The notes beneath the pieces are model-generated. The model made no database searches, was not told the origin of the DNA, and saw only the letters and a program-made list of their open reading frames with translations. Below are positions 1-63,316 of a stretch of DNA of 64,000 bases, piece by piece; position 1 is the stretch's first letter; every line of letters begins with the position of its first letter. The translations under genes and the position numbers were made by a program. The stretch comes from Escherichia coli (GTDB lineage Bacteria > Pseudomonadota > Gammaproteobacteria > Enterobacterales > Enterobacteriaceae), in the NCBI RefSeq assembly GCF_045037415.1, contig NZ_CP173438.1; one strand, 5' to 3'.

Positions 1-384
1 AAATTCAGTTACTCCTTTACGAACGTTTTCGATATCGCTTTGCGTACCCATGAGTTCAAAGCGGTACAGCCACGGCACGCCGCATTTCCGGGCAATCACA
101 TCTCCGGCGCGGCCATATGCCTCACCAAAGTTGCGATTACCCGAAGCAATAACGCCGCGCAGCAACGCCCGGTTATGCTCGTCGTTTAAAAAGCGAATGA
201 CCTGTCGTGGCACCGCGCCAGCCGTACCGCCGCCGCCGTAAGAGGGCACGATCAGGATGTAAGACTCGTCTACCTGAATCCGTTCCCGCTCATTGAGCGG
301 GATGCGCACCGCGGGCAGCCCTAAACGTTCGATAAAACGCTGCGTATTTTCGGAGCTGCTGGAAAAGTAGACGAGCTGGCTCAT
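1..384 (-). CDS. nrdI: NrdI flavodoxin-like protein of the class Ib ribonucleotide reductase operon; partial, 3' end cut by window edge
   Basis: Reverse-strand translation from ATG at 384 gives [24 protein letters not shown]..., which I recognise as NrdI; its start overlaps the nrdH stop (TCATG at 381-385). Confidence 0.9.
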
Positions 385-13044: not shown

Positions 13045-13407
13045 TGGTGGAGCTGGCGGGAGTTGAACCCGCGTCCGAAATTCCTACATCCTCGGTACTA
13101 CATGCTTAGTCAGTCTTTACATTCGCTTGCCAGCTGCGGACGGACACGCCACTAACAAACTAGCCTGATTAAGTTTTAACGCTTCAACCCCAGGCAGGGC
13201 TTCCACGCGATCTCTTTTGGGTTTGACCTCTCTTGATCCCCGTCCTAAGAGCGGAGGCTAGGGAGAGAGGGCTCTAAGCAGGTTATTAAGCTGCTAAAGC
13301 GTAGTTTTCGTCGTTTGCGACTATTTTTTGCGGCTTTTTACGAGGCCAACCGCCCCTCGGCATGCACCTTGGGTTTCGCAAATCCCGTCGAATCCAGAAT
13401 CAGCCCC
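13045..13407 (-). ncRNA. ssrA: tmRNA (SsrA, 10Sa RNA), 363 nt
   Basis: Minus strand reads GGGGCUGAUUCUGGAUUCGACGGG ... CUCCACCA with the tRNA-like acceptor/T-arm; internal tag reading frame GCAAACGACGAAAACTACGCTTTAGCAGCTTAA (ANDENYALAA-stop) lies near 13283-13315. Confidence 0.97.
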
Positions 13408-24353: not shown

Positions 24354-24704
<351 letters not shown>

Positions 24705-24732
24705 GATTTCGCTTAAGCGACATCCTGTTAAG

Positions 24733-24764
24733 AAGGGCTGGCCAATTGGCTGGCCCTTTTTTTG
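24733..24764 (+). terminator. Rho-independent terminator of the rpsP-rimM-trmD-rplS operon
   Basis: GGGCTGGCC-AATT-GGCTGGCCC hairpin followed by TTTTTTT. Confidence 0.7.
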
Positions 24765-24780
24765 TCTGTTTGCTCGTGTT

Positions 24781-25263
24781 TTAAGGGGTTGTAATCACCA
24801 CTGCGACGCGGCGGTTTTCGGCGCGGCCCTGGGCGGTCTTGTTACTGGCTATGGGATATTTTTTTCCTAAACCCTGTGTGATGAGATTGCTGCGCGGAAT
24901 TTGTCCACCCATAGCCCATGCATCGGCCACGACATTCGCCCGTTTTAATGATAAGACTTCGTTGTAACTGTCTTCACCATAGTTGTCGGTGTGTCCATCC
25001 ATACGGGCATGTGTTAGCCCTGTCGAGGCCAATTTGGCTGCCATGGTTTGGATTTGTTGCTGGCTTTCCGGGAGCAATTTGTAGTCATTTTTTGCGAACA
25101 GAATGGCATCTGATAAGCCCAGCGACCAGTCGCCGGCGGATTCAGTAAATCCATAAGATTGCATAGCGGCGACTTGCTCAGGAGTAAACTTTCCCTGAGG
25201 GGACTGGCAGCCAGTAAGTATTAGCGAGGTGAAAATCAGGGGGGCTAGCAGGTGCTTTATCAT
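24781..25263 (-). CDS. yfiB: YfiB, OmpA-family outer-membrane lipoprotein (PAL-like)
   Basis: 160-aa ORF MIKHLLAPLIFTSLILTGCQSPQGKF... with a lipobox and C-terminal OmpA-like region. Confidence 0.9.
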   Translation of the reverse strand: MIKHLLAPLIFTSLILTGCQSPQGKFTPEQVAAMQSYGFTESAGDWSLGLSDAILFAKNDYKLLPESQQQIQTMAAKLASTGLTHARMDGHTDNYGEDSYNEVLSLKRANVVADAWAMGGQIPRSNLITQGLGKKYPIASNKTAQGRAENRRVAVVITTP

Positions 25264-25278
25264 ATCGATATATCCTTG

Positions 25279-26505
25279 TTATCTCACCAGTTTTTCGGCA
25301 CGCTGGTGTTTGGCCTGATACATATTGTGATCGGCAAGCTCTTGTAAATTTTCCGCAGAGGCGTGCTCAATGGTCATCGCGTAACCAATGCTTAATGTCA
25401 TGGTAGTTTGATGGCCATTATGAAGATCAAACGGGAGATTAAAAATTTGTGTCAGTGCTGAGCATATCTGCTGCACTTCAGATTCCGACTGTACATCATA
25501 GAGCACCATAGCGAATTCATCGCCGCCCAGGCGGTATGCTTTATGTCGCAGCCCGCCAAATTCAGCTAACCGTTTTGCTATTTCAATCAAGACTCTATCG
25601 CCCGTCGCATGACCCCAGGTATCATTGATATATTTGAAATTATCGCCATCAAGAAATAGTAACGCCGACGTTTTTCGGGCATCGGAATTGTTCATCAACG
25701 TGTTGATGCCGCTACGAAACGCTGCGCGGTTAGCCAGCCCGGTTAATGGGTCATGTAGCGCGGTACGTAGAAGCTGCGCATTTTTGGCCTGTAAACGAAG
25801 CTGCCACTCTTCCATTTCATCCAGCAGACTGTTGAAGTCGAGAGCGAAGCGGTGAAACTCAGCGATACGTTCTTCCGAAACTCGTCGGGAAAAATTGCGG
25901 TTAGAACGCACATCATGTACGACATCGGTGATATTTTTCAGCGCTTCCACCAGGCCATTGTGCAAATGGCGGGTGAGGGTAATTGCGATGCCTGATGCCA
26001 GCAGAATACAACCGGTCAGGACAGCGAGCGAAAACCAGATAAAATGGCTGATTGAACTGTCGCGAGCAGTTAAGCGTACTTCGCCAATGGTTTCACTATT
26101 GTGACGAATCGGCTGAATGATGGGGGCAGGGAAGAGCCAGTGGCTTATGAAATTGCTGAAAGTATCGCCTGGTTCCTTATGGGTGTAATGCCAGGATGCC
26201 AGAATATTTTGCTGCTTATCACGCACTTCTGCAGTTGAAAATTGGCCTTGCTGGCCCAGCGCTGCCAGTGTTTCAGTTGCTGCAGGGCCATCGGCAAAAA
26301 CGACAGCTGCTTCCAGACTGTAAGTCATTGTTGCTGCTGTCAGTGCCAGGTTTTTTTGCGCGTATTGTTTCAGGGTTAGCACTGACGTCACGGAAAGCAG
26401 CAGCCAGATCAGCGTCATAGTGATAAATATGCTGGTCATGCTGATGTTGCGTAATGCTCTTTTAAACGTGGGGCGCTTATGAAGAGAATTATCGTTATCC
26501 ATCAT
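25279..26505 (-). CDS. dgcN: YfiN/DgcN, membrane diguanylate cyclase (GGDEF)
   Basis: 408-aa ORF with N-terminal transmembrane/periplasmic region and a C-terminal GGDEF domain (RLGGDEF motif). Confidence 0.9.
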
Positions 26506-27013
26506 TTTTCTTCCGTGCGAGCATTAAGACATCCGGGTTGACCTTTACACCGCTACGCGATAAGGCATCCAGGTTTACGGCAAATCTGACGTCATTATTG
26601 TGGATGATCAGACAAAAGGCGCTACCAATAATGCACTCGGTATTTTGTTCGGCAATTAATAATAACGCCTTTGACGGATATTGTTCGGTTAATTCCATCT
26701 GGAATGTCGGTGACTCGTTGCCAAAATAAAAACCATTGCAGCCTGAAATTATCGCCTCTTGTTGAGTATGAATGATGACAGGCAGATAAGGTAAAGATGT
26801 AGCAGCATTTTCTTGTAAGGCGGTACTAAAACGTGAAGATGAAAAGATACATAACTTTGGTGGCCCTGATAGCCCAGGCCAGCGGGTGTAACTGACAATA
26901 CCGGAAACCATCATACGCACGTTTTTCGCAACGTCAGAAGGTTCCTGAGCGAGTATTGGTGCTCCCGTCAGCAGGAGAATCAGCAGTAAGAACAGTCGGT
27001 GAGAAAAACGCAT
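26495..27013 (-). CDS. yfiR: YfiR, periplasmic inhibitor of YfiN
   Basis: 172-aa [27 protein letters not shown]... with a signal peptide; its start overlaps the yfiN stop by 11 nt. Confidence 0.9.
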
Positions 27014-27159
27014 TCAGGGATCCTCACCATCTTCGCTCGAAATGCATCGATATTTTTTCAGAATGCTCATTAAAATATCATCCTTTCATGCGGTCGTCAT
27101 CAATGTGAGAAATAAAACATAATGAGTAAAATCTCATGCTTAATTTATTTTGGGGGTAA

Positions 27160-27525
27160 TTAATTTAATCGTATTGTGCTGGCATTTTCATCAGCCCCTT
27201 TTCGCCATACTTCATGCAGTTGGCTGGCATTTTCAACATTATTGCAGCTGGCAGGAAAGCTTTTACCAGAAAGCCCCCGGGCATAAGTAAAATCGGTCTG
27301 GCAAGTTTTCTTTTGCCCTTCGGCATATCCTTTAAGGTATAGACCGCGATCCGCCTGTGAATCGCTAAATGCATCGTCATCTTTAATGGCGCTGCCCGAT
27401 ATCGCATCTTCCATACCAACATCATACCAGTCGGTGCTGGTCAAGGTTGGCGCGTGAGTATAAGGATCAATCTGACATCCGCTAACCAGTAAAGCCAACA
27501 AGGGGGCGATAAATTTTTTCATCAT
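27160..27525 (-). CDS. yfiL: YfiL, DUF2799-family lipoprotein
   Basis: Track ORF 27160..27543; start placed at MMKKFIAPLLALLVSGCQIDPY... (lipobox LVSGC). Start is uncertain by a few codons. Confidence 0.8.
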   Translation of the reverse strand: MMKKFIAPLLALLVSGCQIDPYTHAPTLTSTDWYDVGMEDAISGSAIKDDDAFSDSQADRGLYLKGYAEGQKKTCQTDFTYARGLSGKSFPASCNNVENASQLHEVWRKGADENASTIRLN

Positions 27526-27570
27526 TTCTTTCTCCTTTTTCAAAGCATAGCGGATTGTTTTTAAAGATGG

Positions 27571-31140: not shown

Positions 31141-31162
31141 AGTGTTGCCTTTTTGTTATCAA

Positions 31163-31192
31163 TAAAAAAGGCCCCCCGATTTGGGAGGCCTT
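31163..31192 (-). terminator. pheA attenuator terminator
   Basis: Minus strand reads GGCCUCCC-AAAUC-GGGGGGCC followed by UUUUUUAU, between pheL and the pheA start. Confidence 0.75.
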
Positions 31193-31238
31193 ATTGTTCG
31201 TCTTCGCATTCTGTTTCACACGACGAAACGCCTCCCAT

Positions 31239-31286
31239 TCAGGGGAAGGTAAAAAAGAATGCGAAGAAAAACGGTGTGTGTTTCAT
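31239..31286 (-). CDS. pheL: PheL, phe operon leader peptide (15 aa, 7 Phe codons)
   Basis: Minus strand ATGAAACACACACCGTTTTTCTTCGCATTCTTTTTTACCTTCCCCTGA encodes MKHTPFFFAFFFTFP-stop; K-12 as I recall it has Ile at position 4. Confidence 0.9.
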   Translation of the reverse strand: MKHTPFFFAFFFTFP

Positions 31287-31389
31287 GTTTGTTTCCTTAA
31301 GTGACTTTAGTACAGTACCCGTACTGTTTTCACGCTGTCAACAAAAAACGCGCCCGAAGGCGCGTTGGCGATACACTCAATATAAAGGA

Positions 31390-32000: not shown

Positions 32001-32738
32001 TTATGTATTGCTGCTGTTTGCGGCGATGATTTTCGCTACTTTTTCAGCTTGCGCATTCATCTGCATCTGACGGTATGCATTTTCCATCAGCGGCAGCGCA
32101 TCACGCGTAGCCTGGGTATCCGGATAGTCGCGCAACATGCCTTCTACGCGGTTAACGACAGCAACCCATGCACCACGTTCTGTATAATACTCGGCAACGG
32201 AGTATTCATATTTCGCCAGACGATCTTTCAGGAATACCAGACGTTTGGTGGCATCGGTGGTGTACTGACTGTTCGGATAGCCGCGCACCAGTTTGGAAAA
32301 GTCACTAAACGCAGCTCGTGCATGTTGAGGATCGCGATCGCTACGGTCGACGCCAAAGAACCCTTGCAGTGCACTGTCATCGAGCGCCATATTGGTCAGG
32401 CCACGCATGTACATGACATAATCGATATTCGGATGGGTCGGGTTAAGGCGAATAAAACGATCGATGGCAGCCTGTGCTAACGGCAAATCGGCGTTTTTAT
32501 AGTAGGCGTAGATGAGATCCAGCTGCACCTGCTGCGAATACGGACCAAACGGATAGCGATTATCTAACGCTTCCAGTTGCGTTATTGCCTGTCTCCAGTT
32601 ACCGTCCTGCAGCTTTTGTTGTGCAGTCGCGTAAATTTCATTTGGCGGATTATCAGGTACTTCTTCCTTTGACCCCGAGCAACCCGCCAAAAACAGGCTT
32701 AGTGTGGCGGCTGCCACCAGATATTTCATGCGCGTCAT
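32001..32738 (-). CDS. bamD: BamD (YfiO), BAM complex lipoprotein (TPR)
   Basis: 245-aa [51 protein letters not shown]... with a lipobox. Confidence 0.95.
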
Positions 32739-32872
32739 GACGTTTTGACTTTCCTCAAAATGTAATACGGGAGATTCTCTGTTCCTGCTCCCGGTTAAGA
32801 CCAGCTACAATAGCACACTATATTAAACGGCAAAGCCGTAAAACCCCAACGATAAACGAAGAAGCAGTATAT

Positions 32873-33853
32873 ATGGCACAACGAGTACAGCTCACTGCAA
32901 CGGTGTCCGAAAACCAACTCGGTCAACGCTTAGATCAGGCTTTGGCCGAAATGTTCCCGGATTATTCACGTTCGCGGATAAAAGAATGGATCCTCGACCA
33001 GCGTGTGCTGGTTAACGGCAAAGTGTGTGATAAGCCGAAAGAAAAAGTATTGGGTGGCGAGCAGGTTGCCATCAACGCTGAGATTGAAGAAGAAGCGCGT
33101 TTTGAACCGCAGGATATCCCGCTGGATATCGTCTATGAAGATGAAGATATCATCGTTATTAATAAACCGCGCGACCTGGTGGTACATCCTGGCGCGGGTA
33201 ACCCGGATGGCACGGTACTGAATGCATTGCTTCATTATTATCCGCCCATTGCCGATGTACCGCGTGCGGGCATTGTCCATCGTCTGGATAAAGACACCAC
33301 TGGCCTGATGGTTGTGGCAAAAACCGTTCCGGCTCAGACGCGTTTAGTCGAATCTTTGCAACGGCGTGAAATTACACGTGAGTATGAAGCGGTGGCAATT
33401 GGTCATATGACCGCTGGCGGTACAGTAGATGAACCAATCAGCCGCCACCCGACCAAACGTACTCACATGGCGGTACATCCCATGGGTAAACCGGCGGTCA
33501 CTCACTATCGCATCATGGAACACTTCCGTGTGCACACGCGTCTGCGGTTGCGTCTGGAAACCGGACGTACGCACCAGATCCGCGTGCATATGGCCCATAT
33601 CACTCATCCGCTGGTGGGCGATCCGGTTTATGGTGGACGTCCGCGTCCGCCAAAAGGTGCTTCGGAAGCGTTTATCTCCACGCTGCGTAAGTTTGACCGT
33701 CAGGCGCTTCATGCAACCATGCTGCGTCTTTATCACCCGATCTCCGGCATCGAAATGGAATGGCATGCGCCTATTCCACAAGATATGGTGGAGCTGATTG
33801 AGGAGATGCGCGCCGATTTCGAAGAGCATAAGGATGAAGTGGACTGGTTATGA
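32873..33853 (+). CDS. rluD: RluD, 23S rRNA pseudouridine synthase
   Basis: 326-aa ORF with an S4 domain and the RluA-family motif HRLDKDTTGLMVVAK. Confidence 0.95.
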   Translation: MAQRVQLTATVSENQLGQRLDQALAEMFPDYSRSRIKEWILDQRVLVNGKVCDKPKEKVLGGEQVAINAEIEEEARFEPQDIPLDIVYEDEDIIVINKPRDLVVHPGAGNPDGTVLNALLHYYPPIADVPRAGIVHRLDKDTTGLMVVAKTVPAQTRLVESLQRREITREYEAVAIGHMTAGGTVDEPISRHPTKRTHMAVHPMGKPAVTHYRIMEHFRVHTRLRLRLETGRTHQIRVHMAHITHPLVGDPVYGGRPRPPKGASEAFISTLRKFDRQALHATMLRLYHPISGIEMEWHAPIPQDMVELIEEMRADFEEHKDEVDWL

Positions 33854-34581
33854 GTAAGCTGATTGTCCCGCAGTGGCCGCTGCCAAAAGGTGTTGCGGCT
33901 TGTAGCTCTACCCGTATCGGCGGTGTGAGCTTACCCCCGTATGACTCGCTCAACCTCGGTGCCCATTGTGGCGATAACCCGGATCACGTTGGGGAGAATC
34001 GCAAGCGACTTTTTGCTGCGGGCAATTTGCCTTCTAAACCGGTCTGGCTTGAGCAGGTACACGGCAAAGACGTGCTTAAGCTTATTGGCGAACCTTATGC
34101 CTCAAAACGAGCAGATGCCTCTTATAGCAATACGCCTGGCACGGTTTGCGCAGTGATGACTGCCGACTGCCTGCCCGTGCTGTTTTGCAATCGTGCGGGA
34201 ACGGAGGTCGCCGCCGCTCATGCTGGCTGGCGTGGACTGTGCGCAGGCGTGTTGGAAGAGACGGTTTCCTGTTTTGCTGATAATCCGGAAAATATTCTCG
34301 CCTGGTTAGGGCCGGCAATTGGGCCACGTGCGTTCGAAGTGGGGGCGGAGGTTCGCGAGGCGTTTATGGCAGTAGACGCCAAAGCGAGTACAGCTTTCAT
34401 TCAGCATGGTGATAAGTATCTGGCGGATATTTATCAGCTTGCCCGGCAGCGTCTGGCGAGCGTTGGTGTTGAACAAATTTTCGGCGGCGACCGTTGTACA
34501 TATACGGAAAATGAGACTTTCTTCTCTTATCGTCGCGACAAGACCACCGGTCGTATGGCAAGTTTCATTTGGCTGATATAA
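33850..34581 (+). CDS. pgeF: YfiH/PgeF, peptidoglycan editing factor (DUF152, purine nucleoside phosphorylase-like)
   Basis: 243-aa ORF MSKLIVPQWPLPKGVAACSSTRIGGVSLPPYDSLNLGAHCGD...; its start overlaps the rluD stop by 4 nt. Confidence 0.9.
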   Translation: MSKLIVPQWPLPKGVAACSSTRIGGVSLPPYDSLNLGAHCGDNPDHVGENRKRLFAAGNLPSKPVWLEQVHGKDVLKLIGEPYASKRADASYSNTPGTVCAVMTADCLPVLFCNRAGTEVAAAHAGWRGLCAGVLEETVSCFADNPENILAWLGPAIGPRAFEVGAEVREAFMAVDAKASTAFIQHGDKYLADIYQLARQRLASVGVEQIFGGDRCTYTENETFFSYRRDKTTGRMASFIWLI

Positions 34582-34643
34582 CCTAAAGAATCAAGACGAT
34601 CCGGTACGCGTGATTTTCTTTTCACATTAATCTGGTCAATAAC

Positions 34644-34672
34644 CTTGAATAATTGAGGGATGACCTCATTTA
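34644..34672 (+). promoter_or_regulatory. Sigma-32 heat-shock promoter of clpB
   Basis: CTTGAAT at 34644-34650 and ACCTCATTTA at 34663-34672 resemble the sigma-32 -35 and -10 elements, about 40 bp upstream of clpB. Confidence 0.6.
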
Positions 34673-34710
34673 ATCTCCAGTAGCAACTTTGATCCGTTAT
34701 GGGAGGAGTT

Positions 34711-37284
34711 ATGCGTCTGGATCGTCTTACTAATAAATTCCAGCTTGCTCTTGCCGATGCCCAATCACTTGCACTCGGGCACGACAACCAATTCATCGAA
34801 CCACTTCATTTAATGAGCGCCCTGCTGAATCAGGAAGGGGGTTCGGTTAGTCCTTTATTAACATCCGCTGGCATTAATGCTGGCCAGTTGCGCACAGATA
34901 TCAATCAGGCATTAAATCGTTTACCACAGGTTGAAGGTACTGGTGGTGATGTCCAGCCATCACAGGATCTGGTGCGCGTTCTTAATCTTTGCGACAAGCT
35001 GGCGCAAAAACGTGGTGATAACTTTATCTCGTCAGAACTGTTCGTTCTGGCGGCACTTGAGTCTCGCGGCACGCTGGCCGACATCCTGAAAGCAGCAGGG
35101 GCGACCACCGCCAACATTACTCAAGCGATTGAACAAATGCGTGGAGGTGAAAGCGTGAACGATCAAGGTGCTGAAGACCAACGTCAGGCTTTGAAAAAAT
35201 ATACCATCGACCTTACCGAACGAGCCGAACAAGGCAAACTCGATCCGGTGATTGGTCGTGATGAAGAAATTCGCCGTACCATTCAGGTGCTGCAACGTCG
35301 TACTAAAAATAACCCGGTATTGATTGGTGAACCCGGCGTCGGTAAAACTGCCATCGTTGAAGGTCTGGCGCAGCGTATTATCAACGGCGAAGTGCCCGAA
35401 GGGTTGAAAGGCCGCCGCGTACTGGCGCTGGATATGGGCGCGCTGGTGGCTGGGGCGAAATATCGCGGTGAGTTTGAAGAACGTTTAAAAGGCGTACTTA
35501 ACGATCTTGCTAAACAGGAAGGCAACGTCATCCTGTTTATCGACGAATTACATACCATGGTCGGCGCGGGTAAAGCCGATGGCGCAATGGACGCCGGAAA
35601 CATGCTGAAACCAGCGTTGGCGCGTGGTGAATTGCACTGCGTAGGTGCCACGACGCTTGACGAATATCGCCAGTACATCGAAAAAGATGCTGCGCTGGAA
35701 CGTCGTTTCCAGAAAGTGTTTGTTGCCGAGCCTTCTGTTGAAGATACCATTGCTATTCTGCGAGGCCTGAAAGAACGTTACGAGCTGCACCACCATGTGC
35801 AAATTACTGACCCGGCAATTGTTGCAGCAGCGACGTTGTCTCATCGCTACATTGCTGACCGTCAGCTGCCGGATAAAGCCATCGACCTGATCGATGAAGC
35901 AGCATCCAGCATTCGTATGCAGATTGACTCAAAACCAGAAGAACTCGACCGACTCGATCGCCGTATCATCCAGCTCAAACTGGAACAACAGGCGTTAATG
36001 AAAGAGTCTGATGAAGCCAGTAAAAAACGCCTGGATATGCTCAACGAAGAACTGAGCGACAAAGAACGTCAGTACTCCGAGTTAGAAGAAGAGTGGAAAG
36101 CAGAGAAAGCCTCGCTTTCTGGTACGCAGACCATTAAAGCGGAACTGGAACAGGCGAAAATTGCTATTGAACAGGCTCGCCGTGTGGGTGACCTGGCGCG
36201 GATGTCTGAACTGCAATACGGCAAAATCCCGGAACTGGAAAAGCAACTGGAAGCCGCAACGCAGCTCGAAGGCAAAACTATGCGTCTGTTGCGTAATAAA
36301 GTGACCGATGCCGAAATTGCTGAAGTGCTGGCGCGTTGGACGGGGATTCCGGTTTCTCGCATGATGGAAAGCGAGCGCGAAAAACTGCTGCGTATGGAGC
36401 AAGAACTGCACCATCGCGTTATTGGTCAGAACGAAGCGGTTGATGCGGTATCTAACGCTATTCGTCGTAGCCGTGCGGGGCTGGCGGATCCAAATCGCCC
36501 GATTGGTTCATTCCTGTTCCTCGGCCCAACCGGTGTGGGGAAAACTGAGCTTTGTAAGGCGCTAGCGAACTTTATGTTTGATAGCGACGAGGCGATGGTC
36601 CGTATCGATATGTCCGAGTTTATGGAGAAACACTCGGTGTCTCGTCTGGTTGGTGCGCCTCCGGGATATGTCGGTTATGAAGAAGGTGGCTACCTGACCG
36701 AAGCGGTGCGTCGTCGTCCGTATTCCGTCATTCTGCTGGATGAAGTGGAAAAAGCGCATCCGGATGTCTTCAACATTCTGTTGCAGGTACTGGATGATGG
36801 GCGTCTGACTGACGGGCAGGGGAGAACGGTCGACTTCCGTAATACGGTTGTCATTATGACCTCTAACCTCGGTTCCGATTTGATTCAGGAACGCTTCGGT
36901 GAACTGGATTATGCGCACATGAAAGAGCTGGTGCTCGGTGTGGTTAGCCATAACTTCCGTCCGGAATTCATTAACCGTATCGATGAAGTGGTGGTCTTCC
37001 ATCCGCTGGGTGAACAGCACATTGCGTCGATTGCGCAGATTCAGTTGAAACGTCTGTATAAACGTCTGGAAGAACGTGGTTATGAAATCCACATTTCTGA
37101 CGAGGCGCTGAAACTGCTGAGCGAGAACGGTTACGATCCGGTCTATGGCGCACGTCCTCTGAAACGTGCAATTCAGCAGCAGATTGAAAACCCGCTGGCA
37201 CAGCAAATACTGTCTGGTGAATTGGTTCCGGGTAAAGTGATTCGCCTGGAAGTTAATGAAGACCGGATTGTCGCCGTCCAGTAA
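34711..37284 (+). CDS. clpB: ClpB, AAA+ disaggregase chaperone (Hsp104 family)
   Basis: Start at [39 protein letters not shown]..., 857 aa, with two AAA+ modules (GEPGVGKT and GPTGVGKT Walker A motifs). Confidence 0.97.
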
Positions 37285-37289
37285 ATGAT

Positions 37290-37318
37290 AAAACGAGCCC
37301 TTCGGGGCTCGTTTTTGT
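37290..37318 (+). terminator. clpB rho-independent terminator
   Basis: AAACGAGCCC-TTCG-GGGCTCGTTT hairpin followed by TTGTCT. Confidence 0.7.
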
Positions 37319-37399
37319 CTATAAGTTAGACGGAAAAGACTATATTTAAGATGTTTTGCCTGAAAAATGAGCGAACGATAAAGTTTTTATATTTTTCGC

Positions 37400-37427
37400 T
37401 TGTCAGGCCGGAATAACTCCCTATAAT
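37400..37427 (+). promoter_or_regulatory. rRNA operon promoter P1
   Basis: TTGTCA -35 (37400-37405) and TATAAT -10 (37422-37427) with 16 bp spacing, GC-rich discriminator after the -10, AT-rich UP-like sequence upstream. Confidence 0.8.
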
Positions 37428-37518
37428 GCGCCACCACTGACACGGAACAACGGCAAACACGCCGCCGGGTGAGCGGGGTTCTCCTGAGAATTCCGGCAGA
37501 GAAAGCAAAAATAAATGC

Positions 37519-37546
37519 TTGACTCTGTAGCGGGAAAGCGTATTAT
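37519..37546 (+). promoter_or_regulatory. rRNA operon promoter P2
   Basis: TTGACT -35 (37519-37524) and TATTAT -10 (37541-37546), followed by a GC-rich discriminator. Confidence 0.75.
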
Positions 37547-37727
37547 GCACACCCCGCGCCGCTGAGAAAAAGCGAAGCGGCACTGCTCTTTAACAATTTA
37601 TCAGACAATCTGTGTGGGCACTCGAAGATACGGATTCTTAACGTCGCAAGACGAAAAATGAATACCAAGTCTCAAGAGTGAACACGTAATTCATTACGAA
37701 GTTTAATTCTTTGAGCATCAAACTTTT

Positions 37728-39269
<1,542 letters not shown>

Positions 39270-39354
39270 CCTTAAAGAAGCGTACTTTGCAGTGCTCACA
39301 CAGATTGTCTGATAGAAAGTGAAAAGCAAGGCGTCTTGCGAAGCAGACTGATAC

Positions 39355-39430
39355 GTCCCCTTCGTCTAGAGGCCCAGGACACCGCCCTTTCACGGCGGTA
39401 ACAGGGGTTCGAATCCCCTAGGGGACGCCA
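39355..39430 (+). tRNA. gltW: tRNA-Glu (UUC) in the 16S-23S spacer
   Basis: GTCCCCTTCGTCTAGAGGCCCAGGACACCGCCCTTTCACGGCGGTAACAGGGGTTCGAATCCCCTAGGGGACGCCA, 76 nt with encoded CCA. Confidence 0.95.
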
Positions 39431-39623
39431 CTTGCTGGTTTGTGAGTGAAAGTCACCTGCCTTAATATCTCAAAACTCATCTTCGGGTGATGTTTGAGAT
39501 ATTTGCTCTTTAAAAATCTGGATCAAGCTGAAAATTGAAACACTGAACAACGAGAGTTGTTCGTGAGTCTCTCAAATTTTCGCAACACGATGATGAATCG
39601 CAAGAAACATCTTCGGGTTGTGA

Positions 39624-42527
<2,904 letters not shown>

Positions 42528-42627
42528 ACAACGCCGAAGATGTTTTGGCGGAAGAGACATCGATAAGTAAGCTTGATAGCAGATTAAATCGACAGGTCAT
42601 AACGGGACGTGTTGATAAAACAGAATT

Positions 42628-42747
42628 TGCCTGGCGGCCGTAGCGCGGTGGTCCCACCTGACCCCATGCCGAACTCAGAAGTGAAACGCCGTAGCGCCGA
42701 TGGTAGTGTGGGGTCTCCCCATGCGAGAGTAGGGAACTGCCAGGCAT
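42628..42747 (+). rRNA. rrfG: 5S ribosomal RNA
   Basis: TGCCTGGCGGCCGTAGCGCGGTGGTCCCACCTGACCCCATGCCGAACTCAGAAG...GGGAACTGCCAGGCAT; 120 nt. Confidence 0.97.
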
Positions 42748-59887: not shown

Positions 59888-60843
59888 TGAAGCAACTTTG
59901 GTTTGCCATGTCATTAGTGACAGGTAGCCTGTTATTCTCTGCTAACGCCTTGGCCACTCCCGCGTCCGGGGCGTTATTACAGCAGATGAACCTGGCCAGT
60001 CAGTCACTGAATTACGAGCTGTCATTTATCAGCATCAATAAACAGGGTGTTGAGTCTCTGCGTTATCGACATGCACGCCTCGATAACCGTCCTCTTGCAC
60101 AATTGTTGCAAATGGATGGCCCGCGCCGGGAAGTGGTACAGCGCGGCAATGAAATCAGCTATTTTGAACCGGGACTTGAACCGTTCACGCTTAATGGCGA
60201 TTACATTGTTGATTCTCTGCCATCGCTCATCTATACCGATTTCAAACGCCTTTCTCCTTACTACGACTTTATCTCTGTCGGGCGCACGCGTATTGCTGAT
60301 CGTCTTTGCGAAGTCATTCGTGTGGTTGCCCGAGATGGTACACGCTACAGCTACATCGTGTGGATGGACACCGAATCGAAATTACCGATGCGGGTTGATC
60401 TCCTTGATCGCGATGGTGAAACGCTGGAACAATTTCGCGTGATTGCTTTTAACGTCAATCAGGATATCGGCAGCAGTATGCAGACGCTGGCGAAGGCAAA
60501 TTTGCCGCCGTTGCTTTCTGTTCCTGTTGGTGAAAAAGCTAAATTCAGCTGGACGCCAACCTGGCTGCCACAGGGTTTTAGCGAAGTTTCCAGTAGTCGA
60601 CGTCCGCTACCGACGATGGACAACATGCCTATCGAATCACGTCTCTATTCCGACGGATTATTCAGCTTCTCGGTAAACGTTAACCGCGCTACGCCATCGA
60701 GCACCGATCAGATGTTGCGCACCGGACGCAGAACCGTCAGTACAAGCGTACGTGATAACGCCGAAATCACCATTGTTGGTGAACTGCCGCCGCAAACGGC
60801 GAAACGCATTGCCGAGAATATTAAGTTCGGGACAGCGCAATGA
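59887..60843 (+). CDS. rseB: RseB, periplasmic regulator of sigma-E
   Basis: 318-aa ORF MKQLWFAMSLVTGSLLFSANALATPASGALLQQMNLA... with a signal peptide. Confidence 0.95.
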   Translation: MKQLWFAMSLVTGSLLFSANALATPASGALLQQMNLASQSLNYELSFISINKQGVESLRYRHARLDNRPLAQLLQMDGPRREVVQRGNEISYFEPGLEPFTLNGDYIVDSLPSLIYTDFKRLSPYYDFISVGRTRIADRLCEVIRVVARDGTRYSYIVWMDTESKLPMRVDLLDRDGETLEQFRVIAFNVNQDIGSSMQTLAKANLPPLLSVPVGEKAKFSWTPTWLPQGFSEVSSSRRPLPTMDNMPIESRLYSDGLFSFSVNVNRATPSSTDQMLRTGRRTVSTSVRDNAEITIVGELPPQTAKRIAENIKFGTAQ

Positions 60844-61319
60844 TCAAAGAGTGGGCTACCGTCGTCTCCTGGGAAAACGGGCAGGCGCTGGTCAGTTGTG
60901 ATGTTAAAGCCTCATGCAGCAGCTGCGCTTCACGCGCCGGTTGCGGTAGCCGTGTGTTGAATAAACTTGGCCCGCAAACCACGCATACCATTGTCGTACC
61001 CTGTGATGAGCCGCTAGTGCCGGGGCAAAAAGTGGAATTGGGGATCGCCGAAGGCAGCCTTCTTAGCTCCGCATTACTGGTTTATATGTCGCCGCTGGTG
61101 GGATTATTCCTCATCGCTTCGCTATTTCAGCTACTCTTTGCTTCTGACGTCGCAGCATTATGTGGTGCGATCCTCGGCGGTATTGGTGGGTTCCTGATTG
61201 CGCGCGGCTATTCGCGTAAGTTTGCTGCCCGGGCAGAATGGCAACCGATCATCTTAAGCGTGGCATTGCCGCCTGGCCTTGTGCGATTTGAAACATCTTC
61301 GGAAGACGCGAGCCAGTGA
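60840..61319 (+). CDS. rseC: RseC, membrane protein of the rpoE operon
   Basis: 159-aa ORF MIKEWATVVSWENGQALVSCDVKASCSSCASRAGCGSRVL...; its start overlaps the rseB stop by 4 nt. Confidence 0.9.
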   Translation: MIKEWATVVSWENGQALVSCDVKASCSSCASRAGCGSRVLNKLGPQTTHTIVVPCDEPLVPGQKVELGIAEGSLLSSALLVYMSPLVGLFLIASLFQLLFASDVAALCGAILGGIGGFLIARGYSRKFAARAEWQPIILSVALPPGLVRFETSSEDASQ

Positions 61320-61516
61320 TTTCACTGGCTTTGTTGCATTTTGCATAACAAATGCGAGGACGTTTCCATATACCACAATCCATACGGTATGAACATTTCC
61401 TCGCCTCAATGTTGTAGTGTAGAATGCGGCGTTTCTATTAATACAGACGTTAAGCTCAGAACAGCGACTTCTAAAAGCCTGGTTAACCGGGCATTAAGGC
61501 ACAATAATCATACTTT

Positions 61517-63316
61517 ATGAAGAATATACGTAACTTTTCGATCATAGCTCACATTGACCACGGTAAATCGACGCTGTCTGACCGTATTATCCAGATCTGC
61601 GGTGGCCTGTCTGACCGTGAAATGGAGGCGCAGGTTCTCGATTCCATGGATCTTGAGCGTGAGCGTGGCATTACCATCAAAGCGCAAAGCGTGACGCTGG
61701 ACTACAAAGCGTCTGACGGCGAAACCTATCAGCTTAACTTTATCGACACCCCGGGCCACGTAGACTTCTCCTATGAAGTTTCTCGTTCGCTGGCTGCCTG
61801 TGAAGGTGCATTGCTGGTGGTCGACGCCGGGCAGGGCGTAGAAGCGCAAACCCTGGCAAACTGCTACACCGCCATGGAAATGGATCTCGAAGTGGTGCCG
61901 GTACTGAACAAGATTGACCTGCCGGCAGCCGATCCTGAACGCGTGGCGGAAGAAATTGAAGATATCGTCGGCATCGACGCCACCGACGCGGTGCGCTGTT
62001 CAGCGAAAACCGGCGTTGGCGTGCAAGACGTTCTCGAACGCTTGGTGCGCGACATTCCGCCGCCGGAAGGCGATCCGGAAGGCCCATTGCAGGCGCTGAT
62101 TATCGACTCCTGGTTCGACAACTACCTGGGCGTTGTTTCACTTATCCGTATTAAAAACGGCACCCTGCGTAAGGGCGACAAAGTGAAAGTCATGAGCACC
62201 GAGCAGACCTATAACGCCGATCGTCTGGGCATCTTCACGCCGAAGCAGATTGACCGCACTGAACTGAAATGTGGCGAAGTAGGCTGGCTGGTATGTGCGA
62301 TTAAAGATATCCACGGCGCTCCAGTAGGCGATACCTTAACACTGGCGCGTAATCCGGCAGAAAAGGCGCTGCCTGGCTTTAAGAAAGTCAAACCTCAGGT
62401 ATATGCTGGTCTGTTCCCGGTAAGTTCCGACGACTATGAAGCCTTCCGTGACGCGCTGGGTAAACTCAGCCTGAACGATGCCTCACTGTTCTATGAGCCG
62501 GAAAGCTCCAGCGCGTTGGGCTTTGGTTTCCGCTGCGGCTTCCTTGGCCTGCTGCACATGGAGATCATCCAGGAACGTCTGGAACGTGAATACGATCTGG
62601 ATCTGATCACCACTGCGCCGACTGTAGTGTATGAAGTTGAAACCACGTCAAGAGAAGTTATCTACGTCGACAGCCCATCCAAGCTGCCAGCGGTAAATAA
62701 CATTTACGAACTGCGCGAGCCGATTGCAGAGTGTCACATGCTGCTGCCGCAGGCATATCTCGGCAACGTTATTACGCTGTGCGTAGAAAAACGCGGCGTG
62801 CAGACCAATATGGTTTACCACGGTAATCAGGTGGCGCTGACGTACGAGATCCCGATGGCGGAAGTGGTGCTCGACTTCTTCGATCGCCTGAAATCTACCT
62901 CGCGTGGTTATGCGTCTCTGGATTACAACTTCAAACGCTTCCAGGCGTCCGACATGGTACGTGTAGACGTATTAATCAACGGTGAACGTGTTGATGCATT
63001 GGCGCTGATCACCCACCGTGGTAATTCGCAAAACCGCGGTCGCGAGCTGGTGGAGAAGATGAAAGATCTGATCCCACGCCAGCAGTTTGATATCGCCATT
63101 CAGGCAGCGATTGGTACGCACATCATTGCGCGCTCCACCGTGAAACAGCTGCGTAAAAACGTACTGGCTAAATGTTATGGCGGCGATATCAGCCGTAAGA
63201 AAAAGCTGCTGCAGAAGCAGAAAGAAGGTAAGAAACGCATGAAGCAGATCGGTAACGTCGAGCTGCCGCAGGAAGCGTTCCTCGCCATTCTGCACGTCGG
63301 CAAAGACAACAAATAA
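61517..63316 (+). CDS. lepA: LepA (EF4), translational GTPase
   Basis: 599-aa [60 protein letters not shown]... with GTPase motifs. Confidence 0.97.

Follow-up and report, generated by a model that had tools for sequence, protein, structure and literature searches.

An intact, ordinary yfiR-dgcN-yfiB operon in the core chromosome of Escherichia coli

We analysed a stretch of 64,000 nucleotides (nt) of Escherichia coli DNA, hereafter the window (NCBI RefSeq assembly GCF_045037415.1, contig NZ_CP173438.1), in which three neighbouring genes encode the Yfi module of cyclic diguanylate (c-di-GMP) signalling: the outer-membrane lipoprotein YfiB, the diguanylate cyclase DgcN (YfiN) and the periplasmic inhibitor YfiR. 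Read from the sequence, the order of transcription on the minus strand is yfiR, then dgcN, then yfiB (Table 1). All three open reading frames (ORFs) are full length, with no frameshift and no internal stop. An initial annotation, made from the letters of the window, had reported three co-directional genes here and called the module intact and complete; the ORFs and the RefSeq annotation agree exactly with its coordinates, and each gene is as long as its K-12 counterpart. In RefSeq, the coding sequences of yfiB, dgcN and yfiR are placed identically in strain SK1144, which matches the window at 100% across positions 24600-27250 and differs from it by four single-nucleotide polymorphisms and no indels across positions 1-32000. 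The gene context in SK1144 is canonical, comprising ffh-rpsP-rimM-trmD-rplS, yfiB-dgcN-yfiR-yfiL and aroF-tyrA. We conclude that the locus is the ordinary, intact chromosomal yfiR-dgcN(yfiN)-yfiB operon of E. coli, forming one minus-strand unit (probability about 0.97). This copy belongs to an already known and well-studied operon and displays no unusual feature.

Domain models and NCBIfam equivalog models with curated cut-offs identify each of the three proteins. YfiR matches the Pfam family DUF4154 ('YfiR/HmsC-like', 2.2e-30), scores 167.3 bits against NCBIfam NF053586 'regulatory sequestration protein YfiR' (cut-off 85), and matches the Pseudomonas aeruginosa YfiR structures at 1e-16. DgcN contains a CHASE8 domain (4.4e-33) and a GGDEF domain (2e-43; model positions 1-159 of 161), scores 501.8 bits against the equivalog NF007423 'diguanylate cyclase DgcN/YfiN' (cut-off 325), and its GGDEF domain matches the P. 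aeruginosa TpbB/YfiN structure 7a7e at 7.6e-29. YfiB contains an OmpA domain (residues 55-151, 1.4e-17), scores 229.6 bits against NF053585 'outer membrane lipoprotein YfiB' (cut-off 128) and 346.7 bits against NF007424 (cut-off 155), and matches the P. aeruginosa YfiB structure 4zhv at 1.1e-31. With E-values ranging from 1e-17 to 1e-150, the family matches are beyond chance. The gene names given in the initial annotation are borne out by these domains and by the cut-offs exceeded, and nothing was found at odds with the identification of the three genes. Every feature of YfiBNR/YfiRNB membership that can be tested in a sequence is present.

In DgcN, Kyte-Doolittle hydropathy peaks at residues ~20-46 and ~150-179, on either side of the CHASE8 domain, an arrangement that fits a periplasmic sensor held between two transmembrane helices (predicted segments in Table 1). 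The RLGGDEF motif that the initial annotation had noted lies at residues 325-331, and the GGDEF signature is not degenerate. The residues predicted to bind metal and guanosine triphosphate (GTP), namely D286, D288, K291, N294, D303 and K399, are all present and are identical to those of the aligned P. aeruginosa TpbB; the first five lie in the stretch FLD286-G-D288-NFK291-YIN294-DTWGHATGD303. From its A-site and its metal- and GTP-binding residues, the GGDEF domain is predicted to be catalytically competent.

The initial annotation had also suggested examining the I-site, the product-inhibition site, and here conservation fails. No RxxD motif stands five residues upstream of GGDEF, where residues 318-321 read GLRH, and a search across all 408 residues of DgcN found no RxxD at all. 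In an alignment, P. aeruginosa YfiN keeps RESD at five residues before GGDEF, whereas the E. coli protein has a two-residue deletion and reads GLRH. DgcN of K-12 likewise carries GLRH and lacks RxxD, and Hwang and Harshey (2023) reported that E. coli YfiN is naturally without primary and secondary I-sites (PMC10127611). Because the K-12 sequence is identical at this site and the published wild-type state is the same, absence of the I-site is normal for the E. coli protein and is not a sign of decay. In that study, changing GLRH to RxxD together with a second Asn-to-Arg change rebuilt the I-sites of YfiN and abolished its growth-arrest phenotype, and the arrest was ascribed to GTP depletion by run-away c-di-GMP synthesis from de-repressed YfiN (PMC10127611). 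The secondary I-site is named 'N280' in the same paper; at position 280 the 408-residue protein has Ser, with the closest Asn at 272, 273 and 289. This mismatch is probably a difference in numbering.

The missing I-site, together with a second, protein-interaction role that E. coli YfiN has at the division site (PMC4992967), could be taken to mean that DgcN is a degenerate, non-catalytic GGDEF protein that acts only as a scaffold or division inhibitor. The chance of this is negligible: the A-site GGDEF is intact, as are all the residues for metal and GTP binding, the match to the Pfam GGDEF model runs from end to end, and loss of an I-site raises output rather than lowering it. Moreover, the 98.5%-identical K-12 protein is an active cyclase whose phenotypes need catalytic activity (PMC10127611).

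YfiB carries a lipobox, LTGC, at residues 16-19, with Gln at the +2 position and thus without the Asp that would signal inner-membrane retention. The peptidoglycan-binding motif reads GHTDNYGEDSYNEVLSLKRA, and the peptidoglycan-site residues N68, D102, G105 and R117 of P. aeruginosa YfiB align to N59, D93, G96 and R108. The N-terminal residues F48 and W55 of the P. aeruginosa protein have equivalents in F39 and W46. YfiB is accordingly predicted to be an OmpA/Pal-like outer-membrane lipoprotein with a peptidoglycan-binding site. YfiR begins with a typical Sec signal peptide of 22 letters, followed by QE. Its four cysteines (C55, C92, C127 and C134) align to C71, C110, C145 and C152 of P. aeruginosa YfiR, and would correspond to both disulfide pairs of that protein (C71-C110 and C145-C152).

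The junctions between the genes bear on their organisation as one operon. The initial annotation had noted an overlap of 11 nt between yfiR and dgcN; the overlap is real and is also found in K-12, although its direction was given in reverse, since the stop of yfiR overlaps the start of dgcN and not the other way round. The dgcN start, ATGATG, sits within the last codons and the TAA stop of yfiR, such that the junction reads AAG AAA AAT GAT GGA TAA in the yfiR frame and ATG ATG GAT AAC in the dgcN frame. Two adjacent ATG codons open dgcN (26499-26505), the first lying 4 nt and the second 7 nt downstream of a Shine-Dalgarno (SD)-like GGAAG; were the second ATG the true start, the overlap would be 8 nt rather than 11. 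By homology, the overlap may couple translation of dgcN to that of yfiR. The SD sequence of yfiR, GAGGA, stands 8 nt ahead of its ATG.

An organisation other than one translationally coupled operon, with an internal promoter serving yfiB or dgcN and an incidental overlap, was considered in view of promoter-like sites on the minus strand, one within yfiR and another where dgcN meets yfiB (Table 1). These belong to a consensus scan that returned seven promoter-like sites, not above the 5.6 +/- 2.4 of shuffled sequence, and whose count of terminator-like sites was likewise not above shuffled. Spacing of -11 and +15 nt, an SD sequence for each gene and the lack of a terminator between them are what an operon typically shows. 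Published work also treats yfi as one operon, with polar effects of yfiR insertions on yfiN a stated concern (PMC4992967, PMC10127611). An organisation of that kind is very improbable.

The identification carries several caveats. The consensus scan found no promoter-like site on the minus strand of the interval upstream of yfiR (27014-27159), where the operon promoter is presumed to lie. A search of the literature for a mapped yfiR promoter returned statements for DgcN of sigma-70 dependence and presence in all growth phases only (PMC5897775); the native yfi promoter is reported to give weak expression (PMC4992967). After yfiB, the sole terminator candidate is a G+C-rich hairpin between the convergent rplS and yfiB genes, which has a T-run on the plus strand, making it a good intrinsic terminator for rplS, and a poor U-tract on the yfiB strand. 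Within DgcN, Pfam detected no HAMP domain in the linker (residues 166-245), even at E<=10; residues 169-243 give weak matches (E ~5e-4) to those segments of the NCBIfam models of BaeS and a second sensor kinase that bear HAMP, and the HAMP domain of YfiN was assigned by modelling in the literature (PMC3375315) and is also described in PMC4992967. With no Pfam detection, a HAMP domain in DgcN rests on these weak kinase-model matches and on the literature. Four residues of P. aeruginosa YfiR (F151, E163, I169 and Q187) have been proposed as YfiN contacts; of these, only F151 is identical in E. coli (F133), while I169 is conservatively replaced by L151. As these residues are mostly unconserved, details of the interface may differ between the species. 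Finally, YfiB is dispensable for the relocation of E. coli YfiN to the division site under envelope stress (PMC4992967).

Upstream of the operon, yfiL encodes a DUF2799 lipoprotein (NF008518, 201.6 bits), and its end lies 146 nt from yfiR. No terminator was predicted in the yfiL-yfiR interval, and yfiL could conceivably be co-transcribed with the yfi operon. The longest yfiL ORF, from a TTG start, is 127 amino acids (aa), compared with 121 aa as annotated.

To place the locus in the species, positions 24600-27250 were used as a megablast query against all complete E. coli genomes (n=5426). The locus was present in 5425 of the 5426, always on the chromosome, and in 5371 of these at least 80% of the query was covered in one place. 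Identity over the query was at least 99% in 1034 genomes, and many were at 100%. The DNA of the window belongs to the core E. coli chromosome. Acquisition of the operon by horizontal transfer was rejected, as there is no island-like break in GC content (0.45-0.50 in the operon versus ~0.50 in the flanks). Antisense ORFs of 50-90 aa on the plus strand of the operon were set aside for want of support, and an Rfam scan of the whole window placed no RNA family within 24781-27159.

The same survey yielded two side observations. In about 54 of the 5425 genomes, no contiguous copy reaches 80% coverage of the query. In E. coli strain 3385 (NZ_CP029420.1, locus L005, 2196-3491), an IS1 insertion cuts yfiR into two pseudogene fragments; the alleles of this strain are otherwise 100% identical to those of the window. 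The insertion amounts to a knockout, arisen in nature, of the inhibitor of DgcN.

Table 1. Positions and descriptions of features at the yfi locus and elsewhere in the window. Nucleotide positions are those of the window; residues are numbered in the encoded protein.
Feature	Position	Strand	Description
yfiR	26495-27013	minus	172 aa; ORF and RefSeq annotation
dgcN (yfiN)	25279-26505	minus	408 aa; ORF and RefSeq annotation
yfiB	24781-25263	minus	160 aa; ORF and RefSeq annotation
yfiR/dgcN overlap	26495-26505	minus	11 nt, ATGATGGATAA; read from sequence, identical in K-12
dgcN-yfiB spacer	25264-25278	minus	15 nt with AAGGA ribosome-binding site; identical to K-12
yfiL-yfiR intergenic region	27014-27159	minus	146 nt; presumed operon promoter and 5' untranslated region
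Hairpin between rplS and yfiB	24730-24761		G+C-rich, 14-bp stem; consensus scan
Promoter-like site inside yfiR	26937-26910	minus	consensus scan
Promoter-like site at dgcN/yfiB junction	25287-25259	minus	consensus scan
yfiL	27160-27543	minus	DUF2799 lipoprotein
DgcN transmembrane helix 1	residues ~21-45		predicted
DgcN CHASE8/PAS-like sensor	residues 45-146		predicted periplasmic
DgcN transmembrane helix 2	residues ~151-179		predicted
DgcN linker			helical, HAMP-like
DgcN GGDEF domain	residues 249-403		Pfam
DgcN substitutions versus K-12 (6)	N9H, M31T, R109H, D111E, G137S, K386N		all outside catalytic motifs
YfiR substitutions versus K-12 (2)	A47G, M88I		
YfiB substitutions versus K-12 (4)	V6L, V10I, G103V, T128I		
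tmRNA ssrA	13045-13407		Rfam, gathering threshold
Phe leader	31162-31287		Rfam, gathering threshold
RyfD small RNA	34592-34730		Rfam, gathering threshold
rrn operon, full	37728-42745		Rfam, gathering threshold; 16S, tRNA (tRNA-Glu in RefSeq), StyR-44 spacer element, 23S, 5S
AsrC antisense RNA of rseC	60804-61635		Rfam, gathering threshold

Outside the yfi locus, the Rfam scan recovered several RNA families (Table 1). The Rfam coordinates of the ribosomal RNAs are shifted by +2 nt relative to the SK1144 annotation; as positions 1-32000 are free of indels, this points to a small indel between position 32001 and the start of the 16S gene (32001-37727).

We compared the allele with that of E. coli K-12 MG1655, in which yfiR (b2603), dgcN/yfiN (b2604) and yfiB (b2605) have the same order and lengths (172, 408 and 160 aa). 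The 11-nt overlap, the 15-nt dgcN/yfiB spacer and the flanking yfiL and rplS genes are all shared, and the locus is in essence the operon known from K-12 and uropathogenic E. coli. The proteins are 97.5-99% identical (98.5% for DgcN) and differ by 12 amino-acid changes in total, none of which falls on a functional residue that was checked. The three genes contain 52 nucleotide differences, 40 synonymous and 12 non-synonymous, a ratio consistent with purifying selection. The yfiL-yfiR region is more divergent, with 13 of 149 aligned columns differing (~9%, against ~2-3% in the genes), and is 3 nt shorter in the window; the SD sequence of yfiR is GAGGA here and GGGGA in K-12.

Differences of this kind raise the question of whether the window holds a lineage-specific allele with a functionally altered set-point, such that the system is more or less active than in K-12. 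The 12 substitutions include YfiB G103V, inside the N-x-x-L-S-x-x-R-A peptidoglycan-binding motif, as well as R109H, D111E and G137S in the CHASE8 domain of DgcN and M31T in its first transmembrane helix, and the divergence upstream of yfiR extends to its SD sequence. The changes are, however, mostly conservative and leave untouched all motif, cysteine and peptidoglycan-site residues checked; the equivalent of YfiB G103 is Lys in P. aeruginosa, which marks the position as variable; the synonymous to non-synonymous count fits ordinary purifying selection; and the allele is common, as the genome survey showed. We consider an altered set-point unlikely. It is a little less likely again that the allele gives the Yfi system a level of basal expression or a threshold for activation different from that of K-12, a reading that draws on the divergent yfiL-yfiR region, the stronger yfiR SD sequence, the substitutions in the DgcN sensor and YfiB G103V.

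Another of the closest known systems is the P. aeruginosa YfiBNR system (YfiR, TpbB=YfiN and YfiB; PDB IDs: 4yn7, 4zhu, 4zhv, 4zhy, 4iob and 7a7e), which has the same three-protein architecture. Conserved between the two are the four YfiR cysteines, the YfiB lipobox, the peptidoglycan-site residues and the F48/W55 equivalents, while several proposed YfiN-contacting residues of YfiR are not. E. coli YfiN, unlike that of P. aeruginosa, has an extra function in arresting cell division, and the sensor role of YfiB has been shown in Pseudomonas only. By analogy, the E. coli Yfi system would work like that of P. aeruginosa with three documented peculiarities, these being the absence of an I-site, the extra division role and a YfiB role assigned by analogy only. 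Homologous modules of a YfiR-type inhibitor and a CHASE8-GGDEF cyclase are found in Salmonella enterica (yfiRN) and Yersinia pestis (HmsCDE) (PMC4992967, PMC5550408), and Salmonella is without yfiB (PMC4992967). Because Salmonella lacks this gene and nearly all E. coli have the three, the emphasis of the initial annotation on completeness is only mildly informative.

For the mechanism, we drew the inhibition of DgcN by YfiR, the redox input, the consequences of the missing I-site and the division role from published work on K-12 and uropathogenic E. coli proteins that are 97.5-99% identical to those described here. The present analysis itself established the identity and intactness of the genes, their motifs and topology signals, and their conservation across E. 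coli. DgcN would be a two-pass inner-membrane diguanylate cyclase, whose cytoplasmic GGDEF domain condenses two molecules of GTP into c-di-GMP. At rest, periplasmic YfiR, folded through disulfides made by DsbA/DsbB, would bind the CHASE8/PAS-like domain of DgcN and keep the enzyme off. Reducing conditions would misfold YfiR, equivalent to loss of yfiR, and release DgcN, after which c-di-GMP would rise, motility fall, and cellulose and biofilm increase. In E. coli, reducing conditions or loss of dsbA or dsbB are described as inactivating YfiR and de-repressing DgcN, the outcome being lower motility together with CsgD-independent cellulose (Hufnagel 2014 and Raterman 2013, as cited in PMC4992967 and PMC5897775). 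A 2026 genome-wide screen in E. coli for high c-di-GMP likewise recovered a yfiR mutant (PMC13031359). Since E. coli DgcN lacks the I-site needed for product inhibition, the enzyme once released would run unchecked, and can exhaust GTP and bring growth on gluconeogenic carbon sources to a halt. Further envelope stress sends active DgcN to the division site, where division is blocked, and YfiB is not needed for this step (PMC4992967).

The initial annotation had described the module as a relay from envelope stress to c-di-GMP. Such a relay through YfiB, in which YfiB sequesters YfiR, is established for P. aeruginosa by genetics and structures (PMC3375315, PMC4887326), but the inputs demonstrated experimentally for E. 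coli differ, and consist of reductive stress acting on YfiR and the YfiB-independent relocation of YfiN under envelope stress (PMC4992967). By homology with P. aeruginosa, peptidoglycan-bound YfiB would sequester YfiR at the outer membrane and thereby activate the E. coli system.

The analysis shows the locus to be intact in this strain and corrects the direction of the gene overlap. The operon is part of the core genome; its parts and physiology have already been published, as have structures for the homologues from P. aeruginosa, and its value as a discovery is small. Lack of an I-site is usual for E. coli DgcN and accounts for the run-away synthesis of c-di-GMP and the growth arrest by GTP depletion that have been reported upon loss of YfiR. 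If the threshold of the Yfi system were in fact shifted in this allele, it could contribute to differences between lineages in biofilm formation or persistence.

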